A stretch of DNA of 26,800 bases from Candidatus Sigynarchaeum calidifontis (GCA_030587475.2 JAUQYZ020000093.1:1-26800), one strand, 5' to 3'; shown: positions 842-24,684, counted from the first letter of the stretch. Numbers and translations: made by a program. Notes: generated from the sequence alone by a model not told the origin.

Positions 842-1096
842 CACCAGCATCCAACGCCAGGCGTTCGGCAGCTCGGCCATGCCGCGGCTTGATTCGCGCG
901 CCGCCGGGTGCCCCGTCGTGTCCTTCTTTCTCCTTCGATTTCATTCACGTGATAGCCACATCGTCGTCGTGGCATGGCTCCCATCGGATTACACGGCTCG
1001 GATTGCACGGCGGTAAGGCGGATCGATAACGGCCTCGCGTGTCCATTGCCATCCGTACCGTGCAACTCTTTTAATCGCCCGCGGCATCCTTCAAGC

Positions 1097-1783
1097 ATGG
1101 GAAAAGAAAGAAAGTACGACAAGTACAAGTACACGTTGGCCTACCGGCGGGTCACGACCAGCATCGGCTGCACGATAGGGCTCGGTATCCTGTGGATATT
1201 CATCGAGGCACTCTGGGGTGGCCTCGGCTATTTTTTCTGGATCGACACGCTGCTCTACATGGCCATGTATGCTAATATCCCTTTCGGCATCATGCTCGGG
1301 ATAATGATCGGCATGATGATCAAGCGCATCCGGGATTTCAAGCGGAAAGTGGCTGATGGCTCTATCGACAAGGATTTGACTTCGACCGTGTACTTCCCCG
1401 CCGGTCCCTCGAAGGTTATGTCGGTGTTGCAATCAATGGGGGAAAGGGCAGGCCGGCCCCTCACGCTGGAAGAGCAAAAAATCAAGGGCTTGATCCAGAT
1501 GTATCCCAAGATCACCCTGGCCGCCCTCGCGGCGAAGGCAGGCGTGCCGGAAGACCAGATCGAGGACAAGCTGTCGATGCTCCTCTCGGAAGGGGTCATT
1601 CGCGGCCACGTGGATCCTGGCACGGAGGAGTTCATATCGGGCATGATCGACACGACGCGGGTGAAGCCCGTCGATGACGCGGTGTTCGACTGCCCGCACT
1701 GCGGCGCGGTGATGAAGTCCGCGCCCGTCAAGGGCACGTCGGTGCGGTGCGCGTCGTGCGGGAACTTGATCGTCGTGCACTGA
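1097..1783 (+). CDS. Membrane-anchored PCI-like winged-helix protein with a C-terminal zinc ribbon
   Basis: ATG 1097 (MGKERKY) is preferred over 974. Two hydrophobic helices are followed by YPKITLAALAAKAGVPEDQIEDKLSMLLSEGVIRGHVD, matching the PCI winged-helix pattern, then CPHCG...CASCG. Confidence 0.8.
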   Translation: MGKERKYDKYKYTLAYRRVTTSIGCTIGLGILWIFIEALWGGLGYFFWIDTLLYMAMYANIPFGIMLGIMIGMMIKRIRDFKRKVADGSIDKDLTSTVYFPAGPSKVMSVLQSMGERAGRPLTLEEQKIKGLIQMYPKITLAALAAKAGVPEDQIEDKLSMLLSEGVIRGHVDPGTEEFISGMIDTTRVKPVDDAVFDCPHCGAVMKSAPVKGTSVRCASCGNLIVVH

Positions 1784-8974: not shown

Positions 8975-10048
8975 TCATGTTCTCGCGAAATGGGGAATCA
9001 CTTTCTGCGAGAGCAGCTGCAAAGAGCCCCAATAGTCGTCGCCGAAGATCTGGAACATGAAATGCTCGCAGCCAGCCTGGATCCACTTCTCGATCTGGCC
9101 AATGACCTCGTCGCTCGACCCGGCGAGGACCGGTTCCATGACCTTCTCGGGGGGAATGTTCGCTTTCATGGCGAATTCCATGGCCGCGCCCTGGTGGCGC
9201 TTGTGTTCGGAAACCCCCGGCTTGCTGAAATGCTTGATGAAATTCACCTTGTCGGGGACCTCTATACCGCAAGCTTTCATGACTTCCGGCCGCAAGCATT
9301 GAACCATGCCGATGTACTTCATGCGCTCTTTTGCAGCCGCGGGATCCTTGTCCGAGATGTTGATGAATGCGTTGTAGGCGAGCTCGACCGGCCGGCCTTC
9401 CGAGCGGACGATCGCTGCCTGTTCCTTGTAGAGACTTGGCGTTGCACCGACGGGGATCCACCCGTCCGCGTACTTCGCAGCCAGTTTCAAGGTGCGGGGG
9501 CTTCCAGCGGCCACCCAGATCTTGGGCGGTGGCGTGGAAGGCTCGTCAGCCTTTTTCTTGAACTGCAAGAATTGCTTGTTGAACTTGTAGTACTTCCCGT
9601 CGAATGATACCTTGTTCCTGGGATCCGACTCGAACATGAGCTTCATGACCTGGATCGCTTCCTCCATGTGCGACACCGGCTTGTCCGCGTTGATACCCCA
9701 TCCCGCCAAGTTTGGTCCCTCGCCCGCGCCGATACCAAGAACGAACCGGTTGTTGCTCATCTTTTGCATGTGCATGGCGTGTTGTGCCATCTGGACGGGG
9801 TGCGTGCGGAACACGTCGGATACCATGATGCCGACCCCGATTTTTTTTGTCACCATGACGATTTCAGCTGCCATGAGCCACGCGCTGTAGATTTCCGTAT
9901 AGTCCGGATACCAGTTCACGTGATCCATGACCGTGAGCATCGAATAATTGCCGAGATCCTCTATTATCTTCGCTGCCTTGAGCATCTCCTCCCGGCCATA
10001 TACCAAATTACAAAAGGCAGTTGCATTTTGGATGCTGAATTTGACCAT
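8975..10048 (-). CDS. LLM-class (luciferase-like) flavin/F420-dependent oxidoreductase
   Basis: MDH, HPVQMAQ, SNNRFVLGIGAGE, FDGKYY and PPKIWVAAGSPRTLKLAAKYADGW. Start is ATG 10048 (or GTG 10057). Confidence 0.92.
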   Translation of the reverse strand: MVKFSIQNATAFCNLVYGREEMLKAAKIIEDLGNYSMLTVMDHVNWYPDYTEIYSAWLMAAEIVMVTKKIGVGIMVSDVFRTHPVQMAQHAMHMQKMSNNRFVLGIGAGEGPNLAGWGINADKPVSHMEEAIQVMKLMFESDPRNKVSFDGKYYKFNKQFLQFKKKADEPSTPPPKIWVAAGSPRTLKLAAKYADGWIPVGATPSLYKEQAAIVRSEGRPVELAYNAFINISDKDPAAAKERMKYIGMVQCLRPEVMKACGIEVPDKVNFIKHFSKPGVSEHKRHQGAAMEFAMKANIPPEKVMEPVLAGSSDEVIGQIEKWIQAGCEHFMFQIFGDDYWGSLQLLSQKVIPHFART

Positions 10049-10089
10049 GCTTCTCACCCAGTGAAAATGCGATTTTGACTCTCTCTAGG

Positions 10090-10856: not shown

Positions 10857-11654
10857 TCACGACAATTTCCACAGGTACTCGTGTTCCAATGCCAGCCCCT
10901 TGAGTAACACGGCACCTCTTGGTTGATCCACCAGGATCTTCGCGAACCTCAAGGTTTCGGGATGCTTCTGTGCCAGGCTCTTGGCAAATTTCATCGTTTC
11001 ATCGGGCAAATCCGCATCCTTGAATATGTCATGGACGAGCCCGATCTCTTTTGCCTTTTGTGCCGGGATTTTTTCCCCCGTGAAGATCATCTGCTTCGCA
11101 CCCGGCGTCCCGAGCACGCTCACCGCACTTTGCGTGCCGCCCCATGCAGGAAAGAGCCGCATGTCGATCTCTGGCAATTGGAAAACGGCCTTTTCCCCGG
11201 CGAACCGGAAGTCGCAAGCGCATGCTATCTCGCAACCACCGCCGATCGCATAGCCGTTGACCTGTGCGATAACCGGCTTCCACTTTTCCGAGATTTCAAA
11301 CTTCGGGTTCTCGTCGTGGGCAAGTGCATCCCAGAACTCCTTCGGGTCATCATTGTGTTCGTTGCCCGTCATTATCTCCAGGATCATGAGCCTTCCGAAA
11401 TCGGTGAGCCAGCGCATTTTATCGGGTGGCGTGCCGTACATGGACTTCAAGTCTTGGCCCGTGGAGAACGAGTCGCCCGCGCCCGTCAATATGATCACCC
11501 GGATCGCCTTGTCTTGACGCAATTCACGCAGCACGTCCCGGAACTCCTTCCTCGCAGGCTCGTCGAACGCATTCTTCACCTCGGGCCGGTTGATCGTTAC
11601 CACCCCGACACGTCCCTTTTTTTCGACCAAAATGCTTGTGCCCACGTTTTTCAC
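10857..11654 (-). CDS. Enoyl-CoA hydratase/isomerase (crotonase) family protein
   Basis: VTINRPEVKNA, FSTGQDL, KPVIAQVNGYAIGGGCEIACACD and FQLPEI...PAWGGTQ. Both catalytic Glu positions are present. Confidence 0.95.
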   Translation of the reverse strand: MKNVGTSILVEKKGRVGVVTINRPEVKNAFDEPARKEFRDVLRELRQDKAIRVIILTGAGDSFSTGQDLKSMYGTPPDKMRWLTDFGRLMILEIMTGNEHNDDPKEFWDALAHDENPKFEISEKWKPVIAQVNGYAIGGGCEIACACDFRFAGEKAVFQLPEIDMRLFPAWGGTQSAVSVLGTPGAKQMIFTGEKIPAQKAKEIGLVHDIFKDADLPDETMKFAKSLAQKHPETLRFAKILVDQPRGAVLLKGLALEHEYLWKLS

Positions 11655-11694
11655 CTTCGTGCTTGTAATGAAAAGAATAATGGAGCCCGGTGGT

Positions 11695-12222
11695 TTATTT
11701 CTCGCTGGCCTTGGATGGATCCTTGATCAACTTGGCTGCATCTTCGATGGCATCGAAATACTCGATATCGCTCAAGTTTCCCTGGAGCTCGCCATCGCGC
11801 CATTTTACCTTGACGGGCATGCCGACGTACACGTCATCGAACTTGATCTTCGGGTTCATTTCCACGATATAGATCGTGTCGGCACCGTCTAGCCGCACGG
11901 CCACGATAGGAACGGGCACCAGCTCGCCCGTTTTTTCGTCCTTGTCGTAGGTGGCAGTGAACGTCGCGACGACGCCGGTTTCACGCAAGCCCACCCACTT
12001 GTCCGGCATGGTCATGCACCTGGGACAGATGAGCTTGGGGGGAAAGAACGTCGTGTTGCAGCCTGTACACCTTAACCCGACAAGTTTCCTCTGCTTGAGC
12101 ATCTCGAAACACGTTTTCACGGGCGTTATGTTGAACTTGTACTTGCAAGACGACAAGTACCACTTGCCTTCAACGGTCCTCGTCCGCGGGTATTCCTTCT
12201 TCACATAATCGAGCTTTCCCAT
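11695..12222 (-). CDS. DUF35 family Zn-ribbon/OB-fold acyl-CoA-binding protein
   Basis: LVGLRCTGCNTTFFPPKLICPRC, GVVATFT, VRLDGAD and VGMPVKVKW. Starts 3 nt after the thiolase-like stop. Confidence 0.92.
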   Translation of the reverse strand: MGKLDYVKKEYPRTRTVEGKWYLSSCKYKFNITPVKTCFEMLKQRKLVGLRCTGCNTTFFPPKLICPRCMTMPDKWVGLRETGVVATFTATYDKDEKTGELVPVPIVAVRLDGADTIYIVEMNPKIKFDDVYVGMPVKVKWRDGELQGNLSDIEYFDAIEDAAKLIKDPSKASEK

Positions 12223-12225
12223 TTT

Positions 12226-13482
12226 TTAATCACCTCCCTTCCACTTGCGCTTCTGCTTGTCGCTCAGAACCATTAGCGTAACGAGATTGATAACTCCACC
12301 CCATGAATGTGCGAGAGCGTTGTGCACGGTTCTTGGCACTTGGTTCCCCGCCTTGCCCATGATTTGCAGCGCTGCCTCGGCGATCCGTTCGAGCCCCGAT
12401 GCCCCGATGGAATTGGTCGAGTTCACGCCGCCAGAGCAGTTCACGGGTAGCTCGCCGTTCGGTGCCGTCGTCCCATCGCGATACCGGAAATGCGCGGTGT
12501 TTTCCTTGAACAAGCCGAGTCGCTCGAGCCAGAAGAGTTCCTGGTTCGGGAATGGCGAGTATACCTCCACGTAATCGATTTCCTTCTCGGGGAACGAGAT
12601 CCCGGCCTGCGAATAGGCCAGCTTCGCTGACTCGACCGCACCTACTTGCTCGCAGGGGTCTATCTGCTCCGTTCCCGATCCGGCATATCCAACCATGGCA
12701 TTCACGTTGCTCACGCTCGCGACACCATTAACGAACACGGGAATGTCCGTGAACTGCTTGCTCTTTTCTTCCGTGGTGAAGAGCACCGCACATGCCCCGT
12801 CTGTCGCCGGGGTCAACATGCCGTATCGCAGCGGGTAGGACACGTACGGCGTATCTAGAACATCCTGGATCGTGAGATTTGGCATTTTCAAGTGCGTGTA
12901 CCAGTTTTTCGCCGCGTTGTGCCGGTTCTGCACGACGACACGGGCGAGGTCCTCCTCGGTACATCCGCTCCGTTTCATGTAATTGATGGCCTGGTACGAG
13001 GCGAGGCCGATTGCACCGCCAGCACCGAAGATGCGTTGCATCTTGTCCATGGAAAGACCGAACTTCGTGAACAACGAGACCTCCGCGTAGGCAACGGATG
13101 CAAGGCCGACGCTCGTGTCGCCGCATGATTGCTGCTCGAATCCCACGACCAACACGTTGTCGATACCAGGTAAACCCGCGGCAACATTGTAATAGCCTGC
13201 GATCCCGATGGAACCACCCGTGGTGCCGCCCGTGGTCACGCGCATGAGTGGCTTGTCCCGCGCCCCCATCCAGTCGGTCATCCAGAGTTCCGGGAAACCG
13301 ATGCCCTCGAAGCCCGGCATGTTGCCCGTGACGAAGGCGTCGATGTCCTTCAGCTCGCAATTGGCATTTTTCAAGCAGTTATCAATGGCCTCGCGGACCA
13401 TCTCTGCCATGTTCACGTCGGAACGCTTCGACGCGTGCGCGCAAAAGCCCGCCCCTGCAATCGCGACTTGTCTGCCCGCCAT
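12226..13482 (-). CDS. SCP2-thiolase-fold protein, Ltp3-like (putative aldolase subunit)
   Basis: Thiolase-fold motifs DGACAVL, EVYSPF and PVNCSGG. FEGIGFPELWMTDWMGARDKPLMRVTTGGTTGGS closely follows my recollection of mycobacterial Ltp3. No nucleophilic Cys. TGATG overlap with the upstream gene. Confidence 0.88.
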   Translation of the reverse strand: MAGRQVAIAGAGFCAHASKRSDVNMAEMVREAIDNCLKNANCELKDIDAFVTGNMPGFEGIGFPELWMTDWMGARDKPLMRVTTGGTTGGSIGIAGYYNVAAGLPGIDNVLVVGFEQQSCGDTSVGLASVAYAEVSLFTKFGLSMDKMQRIFGAGGAIGLASYQAINYMKRSGCTEEDLARVVVQNRHNAAKNWYTHLKMPNLTIQDVLDTPYVSYPLRYGMLTPATDGACAVLFTTEEKSKQFTDIPVFVNGVASVSNVNAMVGYAGSGTEQIDPCEQVGAVESAKLAYSQAGISFPEKEIDYVEVYSPFPNQELFWLERLGLFKENTAHFRYRDGTTAPNGELPVNCSGGVNSTNSIGASGLERIAEAALQIMGKAGNQVPRTVHNALAHSWGGVINLVTLMVLSDKQKRKWKGGD

Positions 13483-14627
13483 CACTTTTCCCCTCCTTCC
13501 AAGACGTATAGAATGCTATTCTGCGCGCAGAAGCCCCATTGCCCGGTGGCGATCGCCCGCTTGACACCTGGCACCTGGTGGCCCTTCGCTTCTCCCTTGA
13601 TCTGCTTCACCGCCTCGATGATGCGCACCAGCCCCGCCGCGAACAGCACGTTCCCGCTCATGGCGCCGCCCGATGGATTGATCGGCATGTCGCCGTCAAT
13701 GCCCGAGGCAAGCTTCGATGCCTGCCCCGGCTGGGCAAGGCCGATGGCCTCGGCCTGGATCAGCTCCTCGTGGGCGAAATGCTCGTACAACTCTGCCACG
13801 CAGATCTCTTTTTTCGGATCTGTGATGCCAGCCATTTTAAAGGCCATCTTGGCGGCATTTTCCATCGATTTGCTCTTGCTCAAGTCCCGCTCGCCGAGAT
13901 AATATTGTTCTTGCGAGTACCCGACACCCGTGATCCACACCGGGTCGTCGGTGATCCGCAGCGCTTGTCGTTCTGGCGCGAGCAAGACGCACGCCATGCC
14001 ATCGCATGGCCTGGCGTACATTTTCTCGGTAACCGGCGAACTCAACATTTCCGATTCGAGCACGTCCTTCACCGTGATATTGTTCTCTTGCGATTCAGGC
14101 AGTGCCAGGTCGTTTTTCGCTGCGTTCTTCCGGTTCTTGACGGCGACGCTCGCGATGTCCTCGGGGCCCACCTTGTATTTGTTCATGTATGCCCGCATCT
14201 GGAACGCGCCGGCCGTCATGACGTTGAGCGCCTCGACTTGCCGCTCGAAGGTCGGGTCGGTCGACATCAGCGAAACCGACTCGTACGGGAAGCACGATGC
14301 CATGCTCCCGCCCCAGACCGCGACGAGCTTGTGGTTCCCCGAAAGTACCCGCATCATGCCGTATAGCATGGCATACGCGGCATCCATCTCGACCTTTGTC
14401 TCGTCCTTCAAGTAAGACCCGGATGGCTCGACGGTGAAACAATTGGAGATCGTCCTGCCATCGTAGAAATCGTTCGTGGCGCTAACGACCGATGTCAAGT
14501 CCTTCCGTTCCAGCTTGGCGCTGTCCAGGGCACCCCTGACCGCGTGGAAAACGGCGTCGTACCGGCCCATGTCCAGGTCCATCGACGGCTTGATCTGGTA
14601 ATACCCGACGATGCCTACCTTGTCCAC
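13482..14627 (-). CDS. SCP2-thiolase-fold protein, Ltp4-like
   Basis: True start is GTG 14627 (VDKVGIVG) after GGAGGGG. NDFYDGR...ETKVEMDAAYA parallels recalled Ltp4 (DYLAGR...ESHVEMDAAWA). Also DGMACVLL, AELYE and INPSGG. Confidence 0.88.
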   Translation of the reverse strand: MDKVGIVGYYQIKPSMDLDMGRYDAVFHAVRGALDSAKLERKDLTSVVSATNDFYDGRTISNCFTVEPSGSYLKDETKVEMDAAYAMLYGMMRVLSGNHKLVAVWGGSMASCFPYESVSLMSTDPTFERQVEALNVMTAGAFQMRAYMNKYKVGPEDIASVAVKNRKNAAKNDLALPESQENNITVKDVLESEMLSSPVTEKMYARPCDGMACVLLAPERQALRITDDPVWITGVGYSQEQYYLGERDLSKSKSMENAAKMAFKMAGITDPKKEICVAELYEHFAHEELIQAEAIGLAQPGQASKLASGIDGDMPINPSGGAMSGNVLFAAGLVRIIEAVKQIKGEAKGHQVPGVKRAIATGQWGFCAQNSILYVLEGGEK

Positions 14628-14629
14628 GT

Positions 14630-15100
14630 TTATGCCCCTCCGGCGACCTTGAACCCCTTGATGTCGTTCGGGGTTCCTTGCAATTTCTTGTTCCAGACGA
14701 TGTCGAGCTTCATCCCGATCTTCATGTCTTGCTCTTGCGCGTCGAGAATGGGAAATATCATGGCCGTGTTGCTGCCATCGATCTGTACCAGCCCGAATAT
14801 CGTCACCTTCTCGTTTTTCTTTTTTCTCCGCTCCGAGACCGTGTACCGCGTCGCGGTGAAGTTGAGCAGCGTTCCCTTGGCCGCGAGCTCGACCCACTGG
14901 CCTTCGAGCGGGATCGTCGCTGCACAATCGCCACACGCTTTCCGGGGCGGTACATAGACCTTCTTGCACGACGGGCACTTGATACCTACGATCTTCTGTT
15001 TTTCGAGGCCGTCATAAAACTTGTCCATGTATTTCCCGACCCAATATTCATAATCGGCTCTAACGATGCCTTCTGTGCGTTCTATCCATTTTTGTGCCAT
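14630..15100 (-). CDS. DUF35 family Zn-ribbon/OB-fold acyl-CoA-binding protein
   Basis: ATG 15100 (MAQKW). IVGIKCPSCKKVYVPPRKACGDC, GTLLNFT, VQIDGSNT and IGMKLDIVW. Confidence 0.92.
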   Translation of the reverse strand: MAQKWIERTEGIVRADYEYWVGKYMDKFYDGLEKQKIVGIKCPSCKKVYVPPRKACGDCAATIPLEGQWVELAAKGTLLNFTATRYTVSERRKKKNEKVTIFGLVQIDGSNTAMIFPILDAQEQDMKIGMKLDIVWNKKLQGTPNDIKGFKVAGGA

Positions 15101-15214: not shown

Positions 15215-15652
15215 CTATCCATCGGAATTTTTGCTACCGTGCATATCTAAAGAGATCTCCTCCCGGTTCGCGTGGATCAACGAGGCAAGATCGTACAGTT
15301 CACGTTTAAAGCTCAGAACGATGTTATTTTCGATAGGAAGCTCGACCAAGGCTCTATTATTAATGAAATCATCGACAGCCTTATCAATATCGACTATTCG
15401 CGTTTCTTTGAAATAATCAAGAAGAAGGTGGAGATAATATGCTTTTACATAGCTATTTTTAACTGGATCCTTGTGATACAAGTATTTTATCACGAAATAT
15501 CGCTGGTCGTCCTTGAATTGATTGGGGGCTGCATCCACGTTGAAAAACGTCGAGAACGAGCCGTAATCGATGATTTGATTGACAACGTGGGCAGTCGACT
15601 CGCTGATCCCTGCTTTCTTTGCCCATCTTGCATGTACCATCCAATTTGGCAT
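15215..15652 (-). CDS. Small putative Zn-dependent hydrolase (phospholipase C/P1 nuclease-like or YdjM-like motifs)
   Basis: ATG 15652. N-terminal MPNWMVH, a conserved-looking IID, and YYLHLLLD (HxxxD) fit this helical metal-binding pattern. Confidence 0.6.
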   Translation of the reverse strand: MPNWMVHARWAKKAGISESTAHVVNQIIDYGSFSTFFNVDAAPNQFKDDQRYFVIKYLYHKDPVKNSYVKAYYLHLLLDYFKETRIVDIDKAVDDFINNRALVELPIENNIVLSFKRELYDLASLIHANREEISLDMHGSKNSDG

Positions 15653-15752
15653 CCAGGAAAAACCACCGGTCGTTTTAACATGGTATTTAATGCATTTGGA
15701 ATTTTTATTCCCGCCGCGCACCGGTGCATTATCGATCAACCAAGGCGATCCT

Positions 15753-16832
15753 ATGATTCGGACGAAAATATGCGACATGCTCGACATCACGTATCCCATC
15801 ATCCAGGCCCCGATGGGTCCTTATGATACAAAAGATCTCGCGGTGGCAGTTGCAAATGCAGGCGGGTTCGGGATGGCAAGTCATCCCGTTCCCGATCCCC
15901 AATTTGGCATTGCGACGATCATCTCCGATGACGAGACGAGGGCGAAGGCATACGAGAATATCAAGCAAAAATTCATGGGGAGCGTGCGCCACGTCGCGGC
16001 GAATGCGAAGGGAAATTTCGGCGTGAACTTCCGGGTGGCGACCGTGCAGTTCGATGTCCCGCTGCTCCTCGACGAGTTGCTGAAGGAATACGACACGAAT
16101 CCCGCCGTCAAGAAAAAATTGCGGGTCGTCATCTGCTCGGCGGGGGATCCCTCGCAGCGATACTTGAGAAAGATCAAGGACGCGGGCCTGCTCCGGTTCC
16201 ACACGGTGCCGAGCGTGTACCATGCCAAGAAAGCTGAGAAATCGGGTGTTGATGCCATCGTGGTCACCGGATACGAGGCCGGCGGGCACGTTGCCCACGA
16301 ACCGTTCCATACTTTTGTTACAGTACCAGAAGTCATCAAATCCGTGAATGTTCCTGTCATTGCAGGCGGGGGTGTCTGCGATGGTCGCGGCCTCGTCGCC
16401 ATGCTCGCGTTCGGCGCGCAAGCGATTTACATGGGAACCCGGTTCATCGTGACGAAGGAATGCGAGTTCAACGACAAGGTGAAAAACCTCATCATGGAGT
16501 CCTCGATCAAGAATCCACGGGAGGATCCCACGATCGTGACGCAAGGCGTTTATGGCCCCCTGCGACACTTGAAAAACAAGTTCGCCTTCGAGCTCGCCGA
16601 GATGACGCAGAAGCTCAAAAGGAAGGAGATTTCCATCGAGGACGTGTACAAGTTCGAATCGGTCGCGACGTATCGGGCCAAGGGTCCCGAGGGGAATCTC
16701 GATGACGGTGCCATCTGGTGCGGGCAAGTGGCTGTCCGGTTGCACGAAAAATTAACGTGCAAGGAGGTCATCGATGGCATCATGGCAGAAGCCACGGAGA
16801 TCATGCAACGCCTTGGCAAGCTCGCTGCATGA
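15753..16832 (+). CDS. Nitronate monooxygenase/FabK-like FMN-dependent oxidoreductase
   Basis: MIRTKICDMLDITYPIIQAPMG, LAVAVANAGGFG, GYEAGGH, PVIAGGGVCDGRG, MGTRF and WCGQVA. Confidence 0.93.
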   Translation: MIRTKICDMLDITYPIIQAPMGPYDTKDLAVAVANAGGFGMASHPVPDPQFGIATIISDDETRAKAYENIKQKFMGSVRHVAANAKGNFGVNFRVATVQFDVPLLLDELLKEYDTNPAVKKKLRVVICSAGDPSQRYLRKIKDAGLLRFHTVPSVYHAKKAEKSGVDAIVVTGYEAGGHVAHEPFHTFVTVPEVIKSVNVPVIAGGGVCDGRGLVAMLAFGAQAIYMGTRFIVTKECEFNDKVKNLIMESSIKNPREDPTIVTQGVYGPLRHLKNKFAFELAEMTQKLKRKEISIEDVYKFESVATYRAKGPEGNLDDGAIWCGQVAVRLHEKLTCKEVIDGIMAEATEIMQRLGKLAA

Positions 16833-22818: not shown

Positions 22819-24390
22819 TCACGGCGGGGGCAGCCGGAAATCGATCACGGGATCGACCAAGCCCGCAGCGGCGAAGCCCTCGGCACGTTCCCTGCACGGC
22901 TTGCAATGGCCGCACGGGCTTGCATCGTCGAAGGCGCAGCTCCACGTCCATTCGAACGGGACGCCGAGGGTTTTTCCAAGCCTGACCACGTCTCCTTTCG
23001 TCTTTCCCTTCAAGGGGAGAAGGAAGGTAGGGGCCACGGCCTTTTCACCGACCTTGAGCTGGGCCACGAGCTTCTCGATAGCATCGAAAAACGGCTGGTT
23101 TGCATCGGGCAGCGGGTCTGACGTGATGTGGCCCGAGATGATGTACCTTGCCCCGTAAATGTCTGCAAAATAGGTCGCGATGGCGTTGAACACCAGGTTG
23201 CGATAGGGCACGTAATAATCGGACGAGCCGAACAAGCTCGGCACCGGATACCCGGCGAGCTTGAGCTCGAGCACCTCCATGATGTACGGGACGGGAACGT
23301 CCACGGCCTTGATGCCAAGTGCCTTGCAGACCTGTTCGACCGCTTTCACCTCGCGGGCCGGGCGATTGTGGTAGTGCATGGAGAGTGGTATCACCTCGTA
23401 GCCCTGGTTGCGCATCCAGTAGAGCGTGGTCACCGAATCGAGCCCGCCCGAGAATAACATGACGGCCCGCTTCTCGGGCATCGGCTCATCTGGCTTCAAG
23501 ATCGCCCGCACAGCCGCGGTAATTGCACCGTTCACGGTGGAAAGCTGCATGTCAAGGTCTTTCATCAAGGTATTCGGATCCCCTCGCGCTTTGCACGCGA
23601 GAAACTGGAATGATTCATCGATGTTTGATGATTCTTGATTGGGGAGAATGCGTTCTATCACTGGCGGGGATATGTTTACGTTCGCATCCCGGATGGCTTG
23701 ATATATTGCCATGACGAGTGTTTCGACGGTCATCGGTTCTGGTCCGACGAGATCGTATGTGTGATCGTGCAAATCCTTTGCTACGGCCGCTTTGATAACC
23801 GCGGTCGCGGCATCGTCGATCGATATTGGTTGGACGAGGCCCCCCTCCATGTAGGGATACCGTACACGTCCCCCGGCGATCGCCTCGAGCACCGCCCGGG
23901 TGAACCAGTCCCCTGGGCCGATGATGAAAGACGGGCGAAGGATCGTGTAATTAATTCCTGATTCCTTCACGAGTGATTCCGCTGCCTCTTTTGACCGTAA
24001 ATATAATCTGGTTGCCGGCGTGCAAGCGCCAGGCACGCCGACACCCAACCCCGAAACGTAGACGATCCTCTTCACAGCTGCATTCCGCATGGCGCTGAGC
24101 ACCCGGCCGAGCAGCTTCACGTTGACCTCGTCGACATGGCTCTCGGAACCGGTTCCTGTTGCTACCAGATGAATGACTGCCGTGGCACCTTGAAACGCGG
24201 CTTCAAGATCGTTCACGAAATACCCGTTGCATATACACGCATCGATGCCAAGTTGCTTGATTTCTTTAGCTGCTTGAAAACTACGGACAATCCCTCTGAC
24301 GGGAATCCCTTGTTTCTTTGCTAATTTGATGATAGCCGTTCCCAGGAAGCCGTTCGCCCCTGTTATTGCGATCAACGTCGTAATAACCAT
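22819..24390 (-). CDS. queC: Fusion of an atypical SDR (NDUFA9-like NAD(P)-binding) domain and a QueC-like 7-cyano-7-deazaguanine synthase domain
   Basis: ATG 24390. N-half: ITGANGFLG, YLRSK, ILRPSFIIG and QPISIDD. C-half from about 23481: AVMLFSGGLDS, YVPYRNLVF, K.DVVRLG..LGVP and TWSC-x7-CGHCKPC. No stop codon between the domains. Confidence 0.9.
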   Translation of the reverse strand: MVITTLIAITGANGFLGTAIIKLAKKQGIPVRGIVRSFQAAKEIKQLGIDACICNGYFVNDLEAAFQGATAVIHLVATGTGSESHVDEVNVKLLGRVLSAMRNAAVKRIVYVSGLGVGVPGACTPATRLYLRSKEAAESLVKESGINYTILRPSFIIGPGDWFTRAVLEAIAGGRVRYPYMEGGLVQPISIDDAATAVIKAAVAKDLHDHTYDLVGPEPMTVETLVMAIYQAIRDANVNISPPVIERILPNQESSNIDESFQFLACKARGDPNTLMKDLDMQLSTVNGAITAAVRAILKPDEPMPEKRAVMLFSGGLDSVTTLYWMRNQGYEVIPLSMHYHNRPAREVKAVEQVCKALGIKAVDVPVPYIMEVLELKLAGYPVPSLFGSSDYYVPYRNLVFNAIATYFADIYGARYIISGHITSDPLPDANQPFFDAIEKLVAQLKVGEKAVAPTFLLPLKGKTKGDVVRLGKTLGVPFEWTWSCAFDDASPCGHCKPCRERAEGFAAAGLVDPVIDFRLPPP

Positions 24391-24684
24391 CCCTTCAAAA
24401 TCGTTGCAAAATCGAGACCATAGTTCGAATGGACAAACATGTCTATAAAAACGCACTGCTATGCTTGTACATCGTGAAGTCGACCCCGCCCTCGCGAAAC
24501 GTAAGACGACAGAAGGCAATTGGTGCCTTTTTGACCAAGCTCGAGCCCGGGGCTTTTGGCTGCCACGTGCACTCTCGGAATCGAGGCTACATGATGACTT
24601 TTTTATAGGCCCGGTGTCATATCAACATCGTTATAGTTTAAGAATTCCCGTCCAGAGTCGGAAAACAAAAAAGATGAGAAAATA

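Follow-up and report, generated by a model that had tools for sequence, protein, structure and literature searches.

Steroid side chains are split by the retro-aldolases Ltp2-ChsH2 (PDB 6OK1) and Sal-Shy (PDB 9MYR), in which a thiolase-fold protein without the nucleophilic cysteine forms a homodimer, pairs with a DUF35 protein and acts after a MaoC-type hydratase. The catalytic base is a tyrosine, Tyr294 of Ltp2 (YDHF motif) and Tyr302 of Sal (YDCY), and the thiolase Cys position is occupied by Gly in Sal (PMC12329534). A related protein, Ltp3, was defined genetically in Rhodococcus as needed to degrade C24-branched sterol side chains (Wilbrink 2012, cited in PMC6273163 and PMC6678751); Ltp3-Ltp4 is described as a heteromeric aldol-lyase that cleaves C24-C25 after desaturation, C28 carboxylation and hydration (PMC6678751). 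In M. tuberculosis the gene order is echA19, fadD19, Rv3520c, Rv3521, ltp4, ltp3, with Rv3520c, an F420-dependent oxidoreductase, preceding Rv3521-ltp4-ltp3 (PMC6429209). Here we analyse a stretch of 26,800 nucleotides from the archaeon Candidatus Sigynarchaeum calidifontis (GCA_030587475.2 JAUQYZ020000093.1:1-26800; hereafter the window), in which five consecutive genes encode a DUF35 protein (DUF35a), two unlike thiolase-fold proteins (ThlA and ThlB), a second DUF35 protein (DUF35b) and a crotonase-fold hydratase (Table 1). A reading made from the DNA sequence alone (the sequence-only reading) had proposed an Ltp3/Ltp4-like aldolase operon acting on branched acyl chains, possibly of sterols. 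We find that the pair is akin to Ltp4 and Ltp3, that both subunits lack the thiolase residues, that a conserved site is kept in ThlB and that the module is widespread in anaerobes; a carbon-carbon lyase on a substrate other than sterols is a probable function.

Results

ThlA and ThlB lack the thiolase residues, and ThlB keeps a conserved site

We aligned ThlA and ThlB with three thiolase-fold paralogues of their own genome; two of these, on contigs C49 and C188, show the C-A-S loop, HDCF and GHP in canonical form. Both window proteins contain the Pfam domain Thiolase_C_1, the C-terminal domain of SCP2-type thiolases (91 bits in ThlA). VTTGGTTGGS of ThlB and VEMDAAY of ThlA align to the C-A-S nucleophile loop of the C49 and C188 thiolases; the loop is Gly-rich in ThlB, with Gly87 in the Cys column, and three residues shorter in ThlA. 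The HDCF motif is replaced by YSPF in ThlB and YEHF in ThlA, and GHP by TNS and GNV, respectively. The nucleophilic Cys, the HDCF His and the GHP His of an SCP2-type thiolase (EC 2.3.1.9 / 2.3.1.16) are thus gone from both subunits, the loss of the cysteine having already been pointed out by the sequence-only reading. Judged by these residues, neither ThlA nor ThlB is able to form the thiolase acyl-enzyme; in ThlB acyl-enzyme formation and thiolysis are precluded because Gly87 replaces the acyl-accepting Cys.

How the replaced positions behave across the family was followed in a 189-row alignment containing 44 B-type (ThlB-like) and 135 A-type (ThlA-like) proteins together with Cys-thiolases; 118 representatives came from an exhaustive HMMER search with ThlA, which returned 170 clusters at E <= 1e-30. 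The Gly87 column holds Cys in five of six Cys-thiolases. Among the B-type rows Gly87 is kept in 43/44, Asn358 in 42/44, Tyr309 in 41/44 and His198 in 39/44. Tyr309 stands at the position of the HDCF His of SCP2-type thiolases, and Asn358 at that of the GHP His. With Y309-S-P-F, ThlB has a Tyr at the first position of the HDCF-equivalent motif, as do Ltp2 and Sal: the Ltp2 orthologue of N. farcinica reads YDHF in the Tyr309 column, which is the column of the catalytic base of both enzymes. His198 is a candidate acid, by conservation alone.

The A-type proteins behave differently. The three-residue gap in the nucleophile loop is found in 130 of the 135 rows, the Tyr column holds S, H, Y, D, C, F and others, and even among direct ThlA orthologues the Tyr of YEHF varies between Y and F. 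We considered the ThlA Tyr (YEHF, cf. YDHF of Ltp2) as a second active site and rejected it, since direct orthologues have Phe. ThlA orthologues, at 61-69% identity, have diverged faster than those of ThlB (66-76%). Since the nucleophile loop is deleted and the residue at the Tyr position is variable, ThlA is probably a non-catalytic, degenerate partner, while ThlB, whose conserved pocket includes an aldolase-type base, is probably the catalytic subunit. Of the earlier proposal that both subunits are aldolases, the half concerning ThlB is strengthened by the conserved Tyr, and the half concerning ThlA is weakened by its degenerate residue pattern. An AlphaFold2 (AF2) model of ThlB (pLDDT 80.9) shows an ordinary DUF35-binding thiolase fold.

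The pair groups with Ltp4 and Ltp3

In a tblastn search of ThlB against plasmid records the best matches were actinobacterial, at 35-37% identity. As Ltp3/Ltp4 references we used syntenic Tsukamurella and Streptomyces records, checked against the NCBIfam cut-offs, and as Ltp2 reference the N. farcinica orthologue (PRK07855 711 bits, YDHF motif). In the Tsukamurella tyrosinosolvens record an NMO gene (opposite strand) is followed by the genes of a crotonase, an AMP-ligase (opposite strand), an OB-fold protein of 309 aa and thiolase-like proteins of 359 and 390 aa, and the encoded proteins exceed the cut-offs of EchA19 (428 bits), PRK07937 (593 bits) and PRK08313 (734 bits); the Streptomyces record has the same five parts. 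Because the Tsukamurella order matches that of M. tuberculosis, PRK07937 and PRK08313 were taken as the Ltp4 and Ltp3 families.

ThlB is 36.7% identical to Tsukamurella Ltp3, and ThlA 30% to Ltp4. The motifs VEMDAAY / YEHF / GNVLFAAG of ThlA correspond to VEMDAAW / HAPF / GNPMFSAG of Ltp4, and TTGGTTGGS / YSPF / TNSIGASG of ThlB to HTAGSVGGS / YVPF / SNPIGASG of Ltp3. Common to the two systems are VEMDAA and the loop deletion in A, and the Gly-rich loop, Y-x-P-F and (S/T)NPIGA in B; HAPF of Ltp4 differs from YEHF of ThlA.

We then placed the pair in a maximum-likelihood (ML) tree of 64 rows under LG+C20, which comprised the window pair, other Asgard orthologues and paralogues, the A/B pairs of 15 named bacterial and archaeal genomes, two actinobacterial Ltp4/Ltp3 pairs, the N. 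farcinica Ltp2 orthologue and Cys-bearing thiolases. All of the Cys-less proteins, of A and B type alike, fall together in a single clade (100/100), with Ltp2 and the Cys-thiolases outside; within it, the A-type split is supported at 100/99 and the B-type split at 93/95, the latter occurring in 90% of bootstrap trees. In the A half, ThlA orthologues, two Asgard paralogues, a Planctomycetota A protein and both Ltp4 form a clade (98/96), mirrored in the B half by a nine-row clade of ThlB orthologues, two Asgard paralogues, a Planctomycetota B protein and the two actinobacterial Ltp3 (97/91). The branching order is the same in both halves, and since the same genomes form mirror clades, the ThlA and ThlB families have co-evolved. 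By its tree position the Asgard pair thus belongs to the sub-clade of Ltp4 and Ltp3: the kinship claimed by the sequence-only reading holds, in the shared diagnostic motifs as well as in the mirror clades, and placement outside the Ltp3/Ltp4 clades, which it had named as refuting, was not what the tree gave. Archaeal and bacterial rows are interleaved throughout, from which we conclude that transfers between archaea and bacteria have happened.

The A/B module is widespread in anaerobes

The nearest ThlB relatives (92-70% identity) bear the names Sigynarchaeum, Sigynarchaeota, Lokiarchaeia, Hodarchaeota and Promethearchaeota, in good agreement with the Asgard host suggested earlier. The host genome (5.0 Mb, 89% complete) has the operon on contig C190. 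ThlB relatives at E <= 1e-60 were detected in 44 of 201 Asgard species genomes; close orthologues (>= 66% identity) are concentrated in two Asgard families, with 31/40 and 3/19 genomes, and other Asgard genomes hold one to seven ThlB paralogues, at 40-45% identity. A wider scan of one genome per prokaryote species, with a six-row B-type alignment as query, yielded at least 557 B-type relatives. In archaea these occur in Bathyarchaeia, Archaeoglobi, Thermoproteota, Thermoplasmatota, and Jord-, Frey-, Odin- and Atabeyarchaeia; in bacteria, in Dehalococcoidia, Syntrophales, Desulfomonilaceae, Desulfatibacillum, Ammonifex, Acidobacteriota and Planctomycetota.

For 80 loci kept from these at least 557 relatives we counted the neighbours within 6 kb. 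An A-type gene is present in 72 of the 80 and lies directly upstream of B in 60. The other recurrent neighbours are acyl-CoA dehydrogenase (33 loci), acyl-CoA synthetase (27), crotonase (12), BKACE (8) and NMO (4).

Two arrangements stand apart. The whole A-B-DUF35 module is duplicated, in tandem or inverted, within loci L060, L061, L089, L090 and L040, from uncultured archaea, Desulfomonilaceae and Dehalococcoidia. On the Simplicispira suum plasmid NZ_CP027671.1 (L024, 4093-8328) the proteins of one operon are of A-type (short, 303 aa), B-type (399 aa), zinc-ribbon, Ltp2-like (396 aa) and OB-fold kind; the Ltp2-like protein has a YDHF motif and is sister to N. farcinica Ltp2 at 100/99. Since this operon holds an A/B pair together with an Ltp2-like protein, both kinds of aldolase stand side by side in it.

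Two DUF35 proteins flank the pair

DUF35a and DUF35b both belong to the DUF35 family, having the PF12172 zinc ribbon, the PF01796 OB fold and a four-Cys ribbon. Pfam scores are 33.9 bits (zf-ChsH2) and 27.3 bits (OB_ChsH2_C) for DUF35a, and 36.1 and 34.5 bits for DUF35b; the CxxC pairs of the ribbon lie at residues 42-45 and 56-59 of DUF35a and at 52-55 and 66-69 of DUF35b. In 11 related loci a DUF35a orthologue (49-69% identity) occupies the corresponding place, DUF35b is kept behind ThlB in all orthologous loci, and the order DUF35a-ThlA-ThlB-DUF35b is found in 8/8 orthologous Asgard loci. In paralogous modules the two DUF35 units stand in tandem behind B or are fused as one gene. The OB-fold partners adjoining ltp4-ltp3 in Tsukamurella and Streptomyces contain two OB_ChsH2_C stretches each, so that the double-DUF35 partner which the sequence-only reading named for mycobacteria holds for these actinobacteria. 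BLAST of DUF35a and DUF35b against the halves of the fused actinobacterial protein gave ambiguous scores (56 vs 53 bits and 46 vs 42 bits).

The operon and its neighbours

The ORF (open reading frame) coordinates bear out the five tightly packed minus-strand genes at 10857-15100 and the spacings described earlier: DUF35a and ThlA are 2 nt apart, ThlB and DUF35b 3 nt, and DUF35b and the crotonase 40 nt, while the ThlA stop overlaps the ThlB start (TGATG with the ATG start, GTGA with the GTG start).

Table 1. Genes of the operon and neighbouring genes in the window.
Feature	Position	Strand	Remarks
DUF35a, zinc-ribbon + OB-fold partner	14630..15100	(-)	ATG start, 156 aa; first of four core genes
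ThlA, A-type (Ltp4-like) thiolase-fold subunit	13482..14627	(-)	GTG start, 381 aa, no Cys
ThlB, B-type (Ltp3-like) thiolase-fold subunit	12226..13485	(-)	419 aa from GTG; 418 aa from ATG at 13482
DUF35b, second zinc-ribbon + OB-fold partner	11695..12222	(-)	175 aa
Crotonase-fold enoyl-CoA hydratase	10857..11654	(-)	ECH_1; 265 aa
Small conserved ORF	15215..15652	(-)	~145 aa from Met51 of 195-aa frame; directly upstream of DUF35a
NMO/FabK-like FMN (flavin mononucleotide) oxidoreductase	15579..16832	(+)	divergent neighbour; Pfam NMO 183.5 bits from residue 63
Luciferase-like (F420/flavin LLM) oxidoreductase	8975..10057	(-)	Bac_luciferase 158 bits

The crotonase matches ECH_1 (PF00378) at 168.8 bits and has both catalytic Glu residues (GGGCE, LPEID), which agrees with the hydratase assigned to the operon from the outset. 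It has an insert of ~24 aa before the GGGCE loop and a C-terminus shortened relative to EchA19 and the other crotonases of its own genome. With 165 bits against an EchA19 equivalog cut-off of 400 (NCBIfam NF051848), a score hardly above those of other crotonase families, it is not an EchA19 equivalog. No relatives at E <= 1e-40 were found in 200 other Asgard species genomes; orthologues of 64-69% identity lie directly behind DUF35b in the metagenome contigs L111, L113 and L114, whose ThlB is 82-85% identical to that of the window. These three contigs keep the whole series small ORF-DUF35a-ThlA-ThlB-DUF35b-crotonase. The operon of five genes is thus real, though restricted to the near lineage of the window. 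In the Asgard family f13 an acyl-CoA synthetase takes the crotonase's place.

The small ORF, conserved in L111, L113 and L114 at the same position (47-49% identity over 140 aa), matched no Pfam family; in the Atlas it is represented from residue 51, and the clusters closest to it contain hypothetical archaeal proteins, DUF6915 occurring in 14% of one of these clusters. The true start of the NMO/FabK-like gene lies probably near 15750. An NMO gene adjoins the module in L010, L012, L013, L014, L020, L022, L111, L113 and L114, co-directionally in L012, L013, L020, L111, L113 and L114, and adjoins echA19 in Tsukamurella. The LLM oxidoreductase shows weak matches to F420-dependent LLM families; LLM genes lie near the module in 4/80 loci and in L020, a weak association, and the gene is possibly an accessory one.

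In the closest relatives, the region behind the crotonase (L111:6898-9875, L114:6854-7816) contains BKACE in convergent orientation, the alpha and beta genes of a CoA-transferase, and NMO in one or two copies. In the window's genome this region is rearranged, with the NMO gene on the other side of the module; BKACE was not found in this genome (89% complete), and its sole CoA-transferase lies on contig C163. There (C163:22400-28350) the CoA-transferase alpha and beta genes accompany an acyl-CoA dehydrogenase (ACAD) gene and the gene of a thiolase-like protein that lacks the Cys but has both HDAF and GHP; a DUF35 ORF overlaps the end of this gene. With this ST0096-like protein (PDB 4YZO), the window's genome encodes a third kind of thiolase-fold protein without Cys. 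ACAD genes number seven in this genome, and 3HCDH (3-hydroxyacyl-CoA dehydrogenase) is encoded at least once; because these ordinary steps of beta-oxidation are present, the module is likely an add-on for special substrates.

Elsewhere in the window, the gene at 22819-24519 (-) encodes a fusion of QueC with an NAD(P)-binding reductase domain (Pfam), and a PCI-domain protein (26 bits) is encoded at 974-1783 (+). The PCI domain is better known from subunits of the eukaryotic proteasome lid, the CSN and eIF3.

Discussion

In this study we have examined the gene structure, homology, residue patterns, A/B co-evolution and conserved context of an Asgard archaeal operon. By analogy with the described systems, we consider it reasonably probable that DUF35a, ThlA, ThlB and DUF35b form a heteromeric Ltp3/Ltp4-type C-C lyase that splits the 3-hydroxyacyl-CoA made by the crotonase. 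In such a complex ThlA and ThlB would pair as a pseudo-symmetric dimer resembling that of thiolases, each capped by its own DUF35 protein; this would match the alpha-beta-beta-alpha layout of Ltp2-ChsH2 and Sal-Shy, with ChsH2 and Shy as the DUF35 parts, a layout that the gene order DUF35a-ThlA-ThlB-DUF35b mirrors. ThlA would be a structural or substrate-shaping partner. The crotonase would hydrate a 2-enoyl-CoA, after which ThlB would deprotonate the 3-hydroxyl and the C2-C3 bond would split by retro-aldol cleavage, giving acetyl- or propionyl-CoA and an aldehyde, a ketone or a beta-keto acid. Such a route would suit substrates whose beta-carbon is not oxidisable, e.g. beta-branched chains, and the substrate may reasonably be guessed to be a beta-branched acid, for instance an isoprenoid acid. 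As described, the Ltp3-Ltp4 step is itself a reaction of the HMG-CoA-lyase kind, with a beta-branched chain as substrate and a beta-keto acid as the expected remainder. The substrates of BKACE enzymes are beta-keto acids and acetyl-CoA, and we infer that their frequent presence beside the module fits a beta-keto acid product.

The locus resembles the Ltp3-Ltp4 system (Rv3523-Rv3522-Rv3521 type, with EchA19 and FadD19) in having two unlike Cys-less thiolase-fold subunits, A then B, that share a sub-clade with Ltp4 and Ltp3 in the respective subunit trees, a pair of DUF35 units, a crotonase, NMO and LLM neighbours and, in sister loci of the window, an acyl-CoA synthetase. It differs in its low identity (30-37%, with both subunits under the NCBIfam cut-offs), in two separate flanking DUF35 genes where the actinobacteria have one fused gene upstream, in the crotonase, in its anaerobic archaeal host with no carboxyltransferase found, and in the BKACE and CoA-transferase genes added in its closest relatives. 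With Ltp2-ChsH2 and Sal-Shy it shares the Cys-less thiolase fold, Gly at the Cys position, a DUF35 partner, the Tyr opening the HDCF-equivalent motif and a hydratase before the lyase step. In contrast to those systems it has an A/B heteropair instead of a homodimer and a crotonase instead of a MaoC-type hydratase, and Ltp2 falls outside the A+B clade. The archaeal DUF35-bound SCP2-type thiolases, among the best matches of the ThlB model (TM 0.84-0.90), share its fold, but keep Cys and His and catalyse Claisen condensation; the Cys-bearing paralogues on C49 and C188 are of this kind. The best PDB sequence match, ST0096 of Sulfolobus tokodaii (E 7.8e-30 for ThlA, 2.2e-35 for ThlB), has no nucleophilic Cys and a Gly-rich loop as well, but keeps the HD.. 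and GHP histidines, like the C163 paralogue, and is by its motifs neither A-type nor B-type.

Several observations weigh against a lyase of the Ltp3/Ltp4 type. Both subunits fall short of the respective NCBIfam cut-offs: ThlB scores 364 bits against 514 for the Ltp3 family (NF006180 / PRK08313), which is nonetheless its best family by far (next family 202 bits), and ThlA 164 bits against 419 for the Ltp4 family (NF005924 / PRK07937), scoring best with two archaeal families, PRK06066 (222 bits) and PRK06065 (217 bits). Nor does the window pair keep the residue that serves as the second catalytic one in the known aldolases, Tyr344 of Ltp2 and Cys304 of Sal: Pro311 of ThlB stands at the Sal Cys position, no Tyr occurs in the region aligned to the E-A-Y-I-H-G stretch of Ltp2, and no catalytic acid was found in ThlB. 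Thiolases, BbsB, Ltp2, PhlC and Sal rank alike among the fold neighbours of the ThlB model, and because they do, the fold search leaves aldolase versus thiolase chemistry undecided. Our literature search found no biochemical assay of any A/B family enzyme, neither of Ltp3/Ltp4 nor of archaeal A/B pairs, so that the aldolase label of the family rests on genetics and analogy. Genes for activation, desaturation and hydration, with none for a dehydrogenase, are what a hydratase-lyase route would lead one to expect, but that no 3HCDH-type dehydrogenase matched near the 80 loci comes from one BLAST query, a weak test that would miss enzymes of SDR type (short-chain dehydrogenases/reductases). Finally, the recurrent partner in the window's sub-clade is the NMO/FabK-like reductase and not an acyl-CoA dehydrogenase, and because this reductase recurs, a reductive or synthetic direction would also fit.

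In that direction, the complex would condense acetyl-CoA with an aldehyde or ketone to a 3-hydroxyacyl-CoA, which the crotonase, a reversible enzyme, would dehydrate and the NMO/FabK-like flavoenzyme reduce, amounting to C2 elongation that avoids the unfavourable Claisen step. The NMO/FabK-like gene adjoins the module in the window and nine related loci, and archaeal fatty-acid synthesis via ketothiolase (KT)/DUF35 complexes has been shown, with several KT/DUF35 pairs in Asgards (bioRxiv 10.1101/2024.07.05.601840). However, the characterised archaeal synthase has a Cys-bearing thiolase, the NMO protein is far under the FabK cut-off (206 vs 453 bits), the usual partners in the 80 loci are catabolic (acyl-CoA synthetase and acyl-CoA dehydrogenase), and degradation is the role of the relatives already known (Ltp2, Sal, Ltp3/4), which makes synthesis distinctly unlikely. 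Somewhat less so, but still unlikely, is a different reaction altogether, in which the complex would act as decarboxylase, hydrolase or ring-opening lyase on a CoA ester, or on a beta-keto acid exchanged with BKACE. The missing second catalytic residue and the frequent BKACE neighbours would agree with this, and the related Trypanosoma SLP has weak malonyl-CoA decarboxylase activity only, its function being open (PMC12329534). Other DUF35-bound thiolase-fold enzymes carry out Friedel-Crafts acyl transfer, but this, like thiolase chemistry, needs the Cys that is absent here; moreover, the conserved Tyr lies exactly at the position of the aldolase base, and hydratases, be they crotonase or MaoC, recur beside the module. 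Since every canonical thiolase catalytic residue is replaced in both subunits, a catalytically dead scaffold or regulatory pseudo-enzyme complex could be imagined as well. We regard it as very improbable: the replaced positions of the B subunit are near-invariant across phyla, ThlB is 66-85% identical across Asgard families, and translational coupling links the genes, which lie in metabolic operons.

As to the substrate, the sequence-only reading had pointed to phytosterol, hopanoid or isoprenoid chains. The window pair does stand in a supported clade with Planctomycetota and actinobacterial Ltp4/Ltp3 in both tree halves, and the neighbourhood is actinobacteria-like (crotonase, NMO and LLM oxidoreductase, with acyl-CoA synthetase in L012 and L013). 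That the operon serves, like Ltp3/Ltp4 in Rhodococcus, to take off the C24 branch of phytosterols, or else a hopanoid side chain, is nevertheless hardly credible, given only 37% and 30% identity to Ltp3 and Ltp4, the missed cut-offs of both families and of EchA19, and the fact that Archaeoglobi, Bathyarchaeia, Dehalococcoidia, Syntrophales and others have the same module too, Asgard genomes carrying as many as seven copies. The closest relatives pair the module with BKACE and CoA-transferase and with no steroid genes, and a carboxyltransferase for C28 carboxylation was not found in the genome (89% complete), for which reason the sitosterol carboxylation-hydration-lyase route was rejected. Because the module is widespread in anaerobes, cleavage of some other blocked acyl-CoA is probable. 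Taking the lyase further, we tentatively suggest, although we think it unlikely in its entirety, that the A/B + DUF35 module is an old device shared among anaerobes for cutting beta-blocked acyl-CoA, e.g. the 3-methyl-branched isoprenoid acids of phytol and archaeal lipids. The Asgard route would then run from crotonase to lyase to BKACE and CoA-transferase, giving acetyl-CoA and a ketone or beta-keto acid, and Ltp3/Ltp4 would be a late offshoot of the window pair's sub-clade.

What is known of Ltp3/Ltp4 comes only from knock-outs in actinobacteria that degrade sterols, and we found no assayed or solved member of the family in the literature. What the present comparison adds is a predicted site (Gly at the Cys position, Tyr309, Asn358) kept in the B subunit only, beside a degenerate A subunit, and this contrast amounts to a concrete mutagenesis plan. 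The genes of the A/B family are labelled acetyl-CoA acetyltransferase in databases; they are not to be counted as thiolases in Asgard metabolic reconstructions, nor where KT/DUF35 pairs are counted in arguments on fatty-acid synthesis and the lipid divide. The significance that the sequence-only reading drew from the closeness of Asgards to sterol-making eukaryotes does not follow, as the same module is widespread outside Asgards, and the finding has no bearing on the origin of eukaryotic sterol metabolism. Rather, the sterol enzymes look like one specialised branch within a general module for cutting carbon chains.

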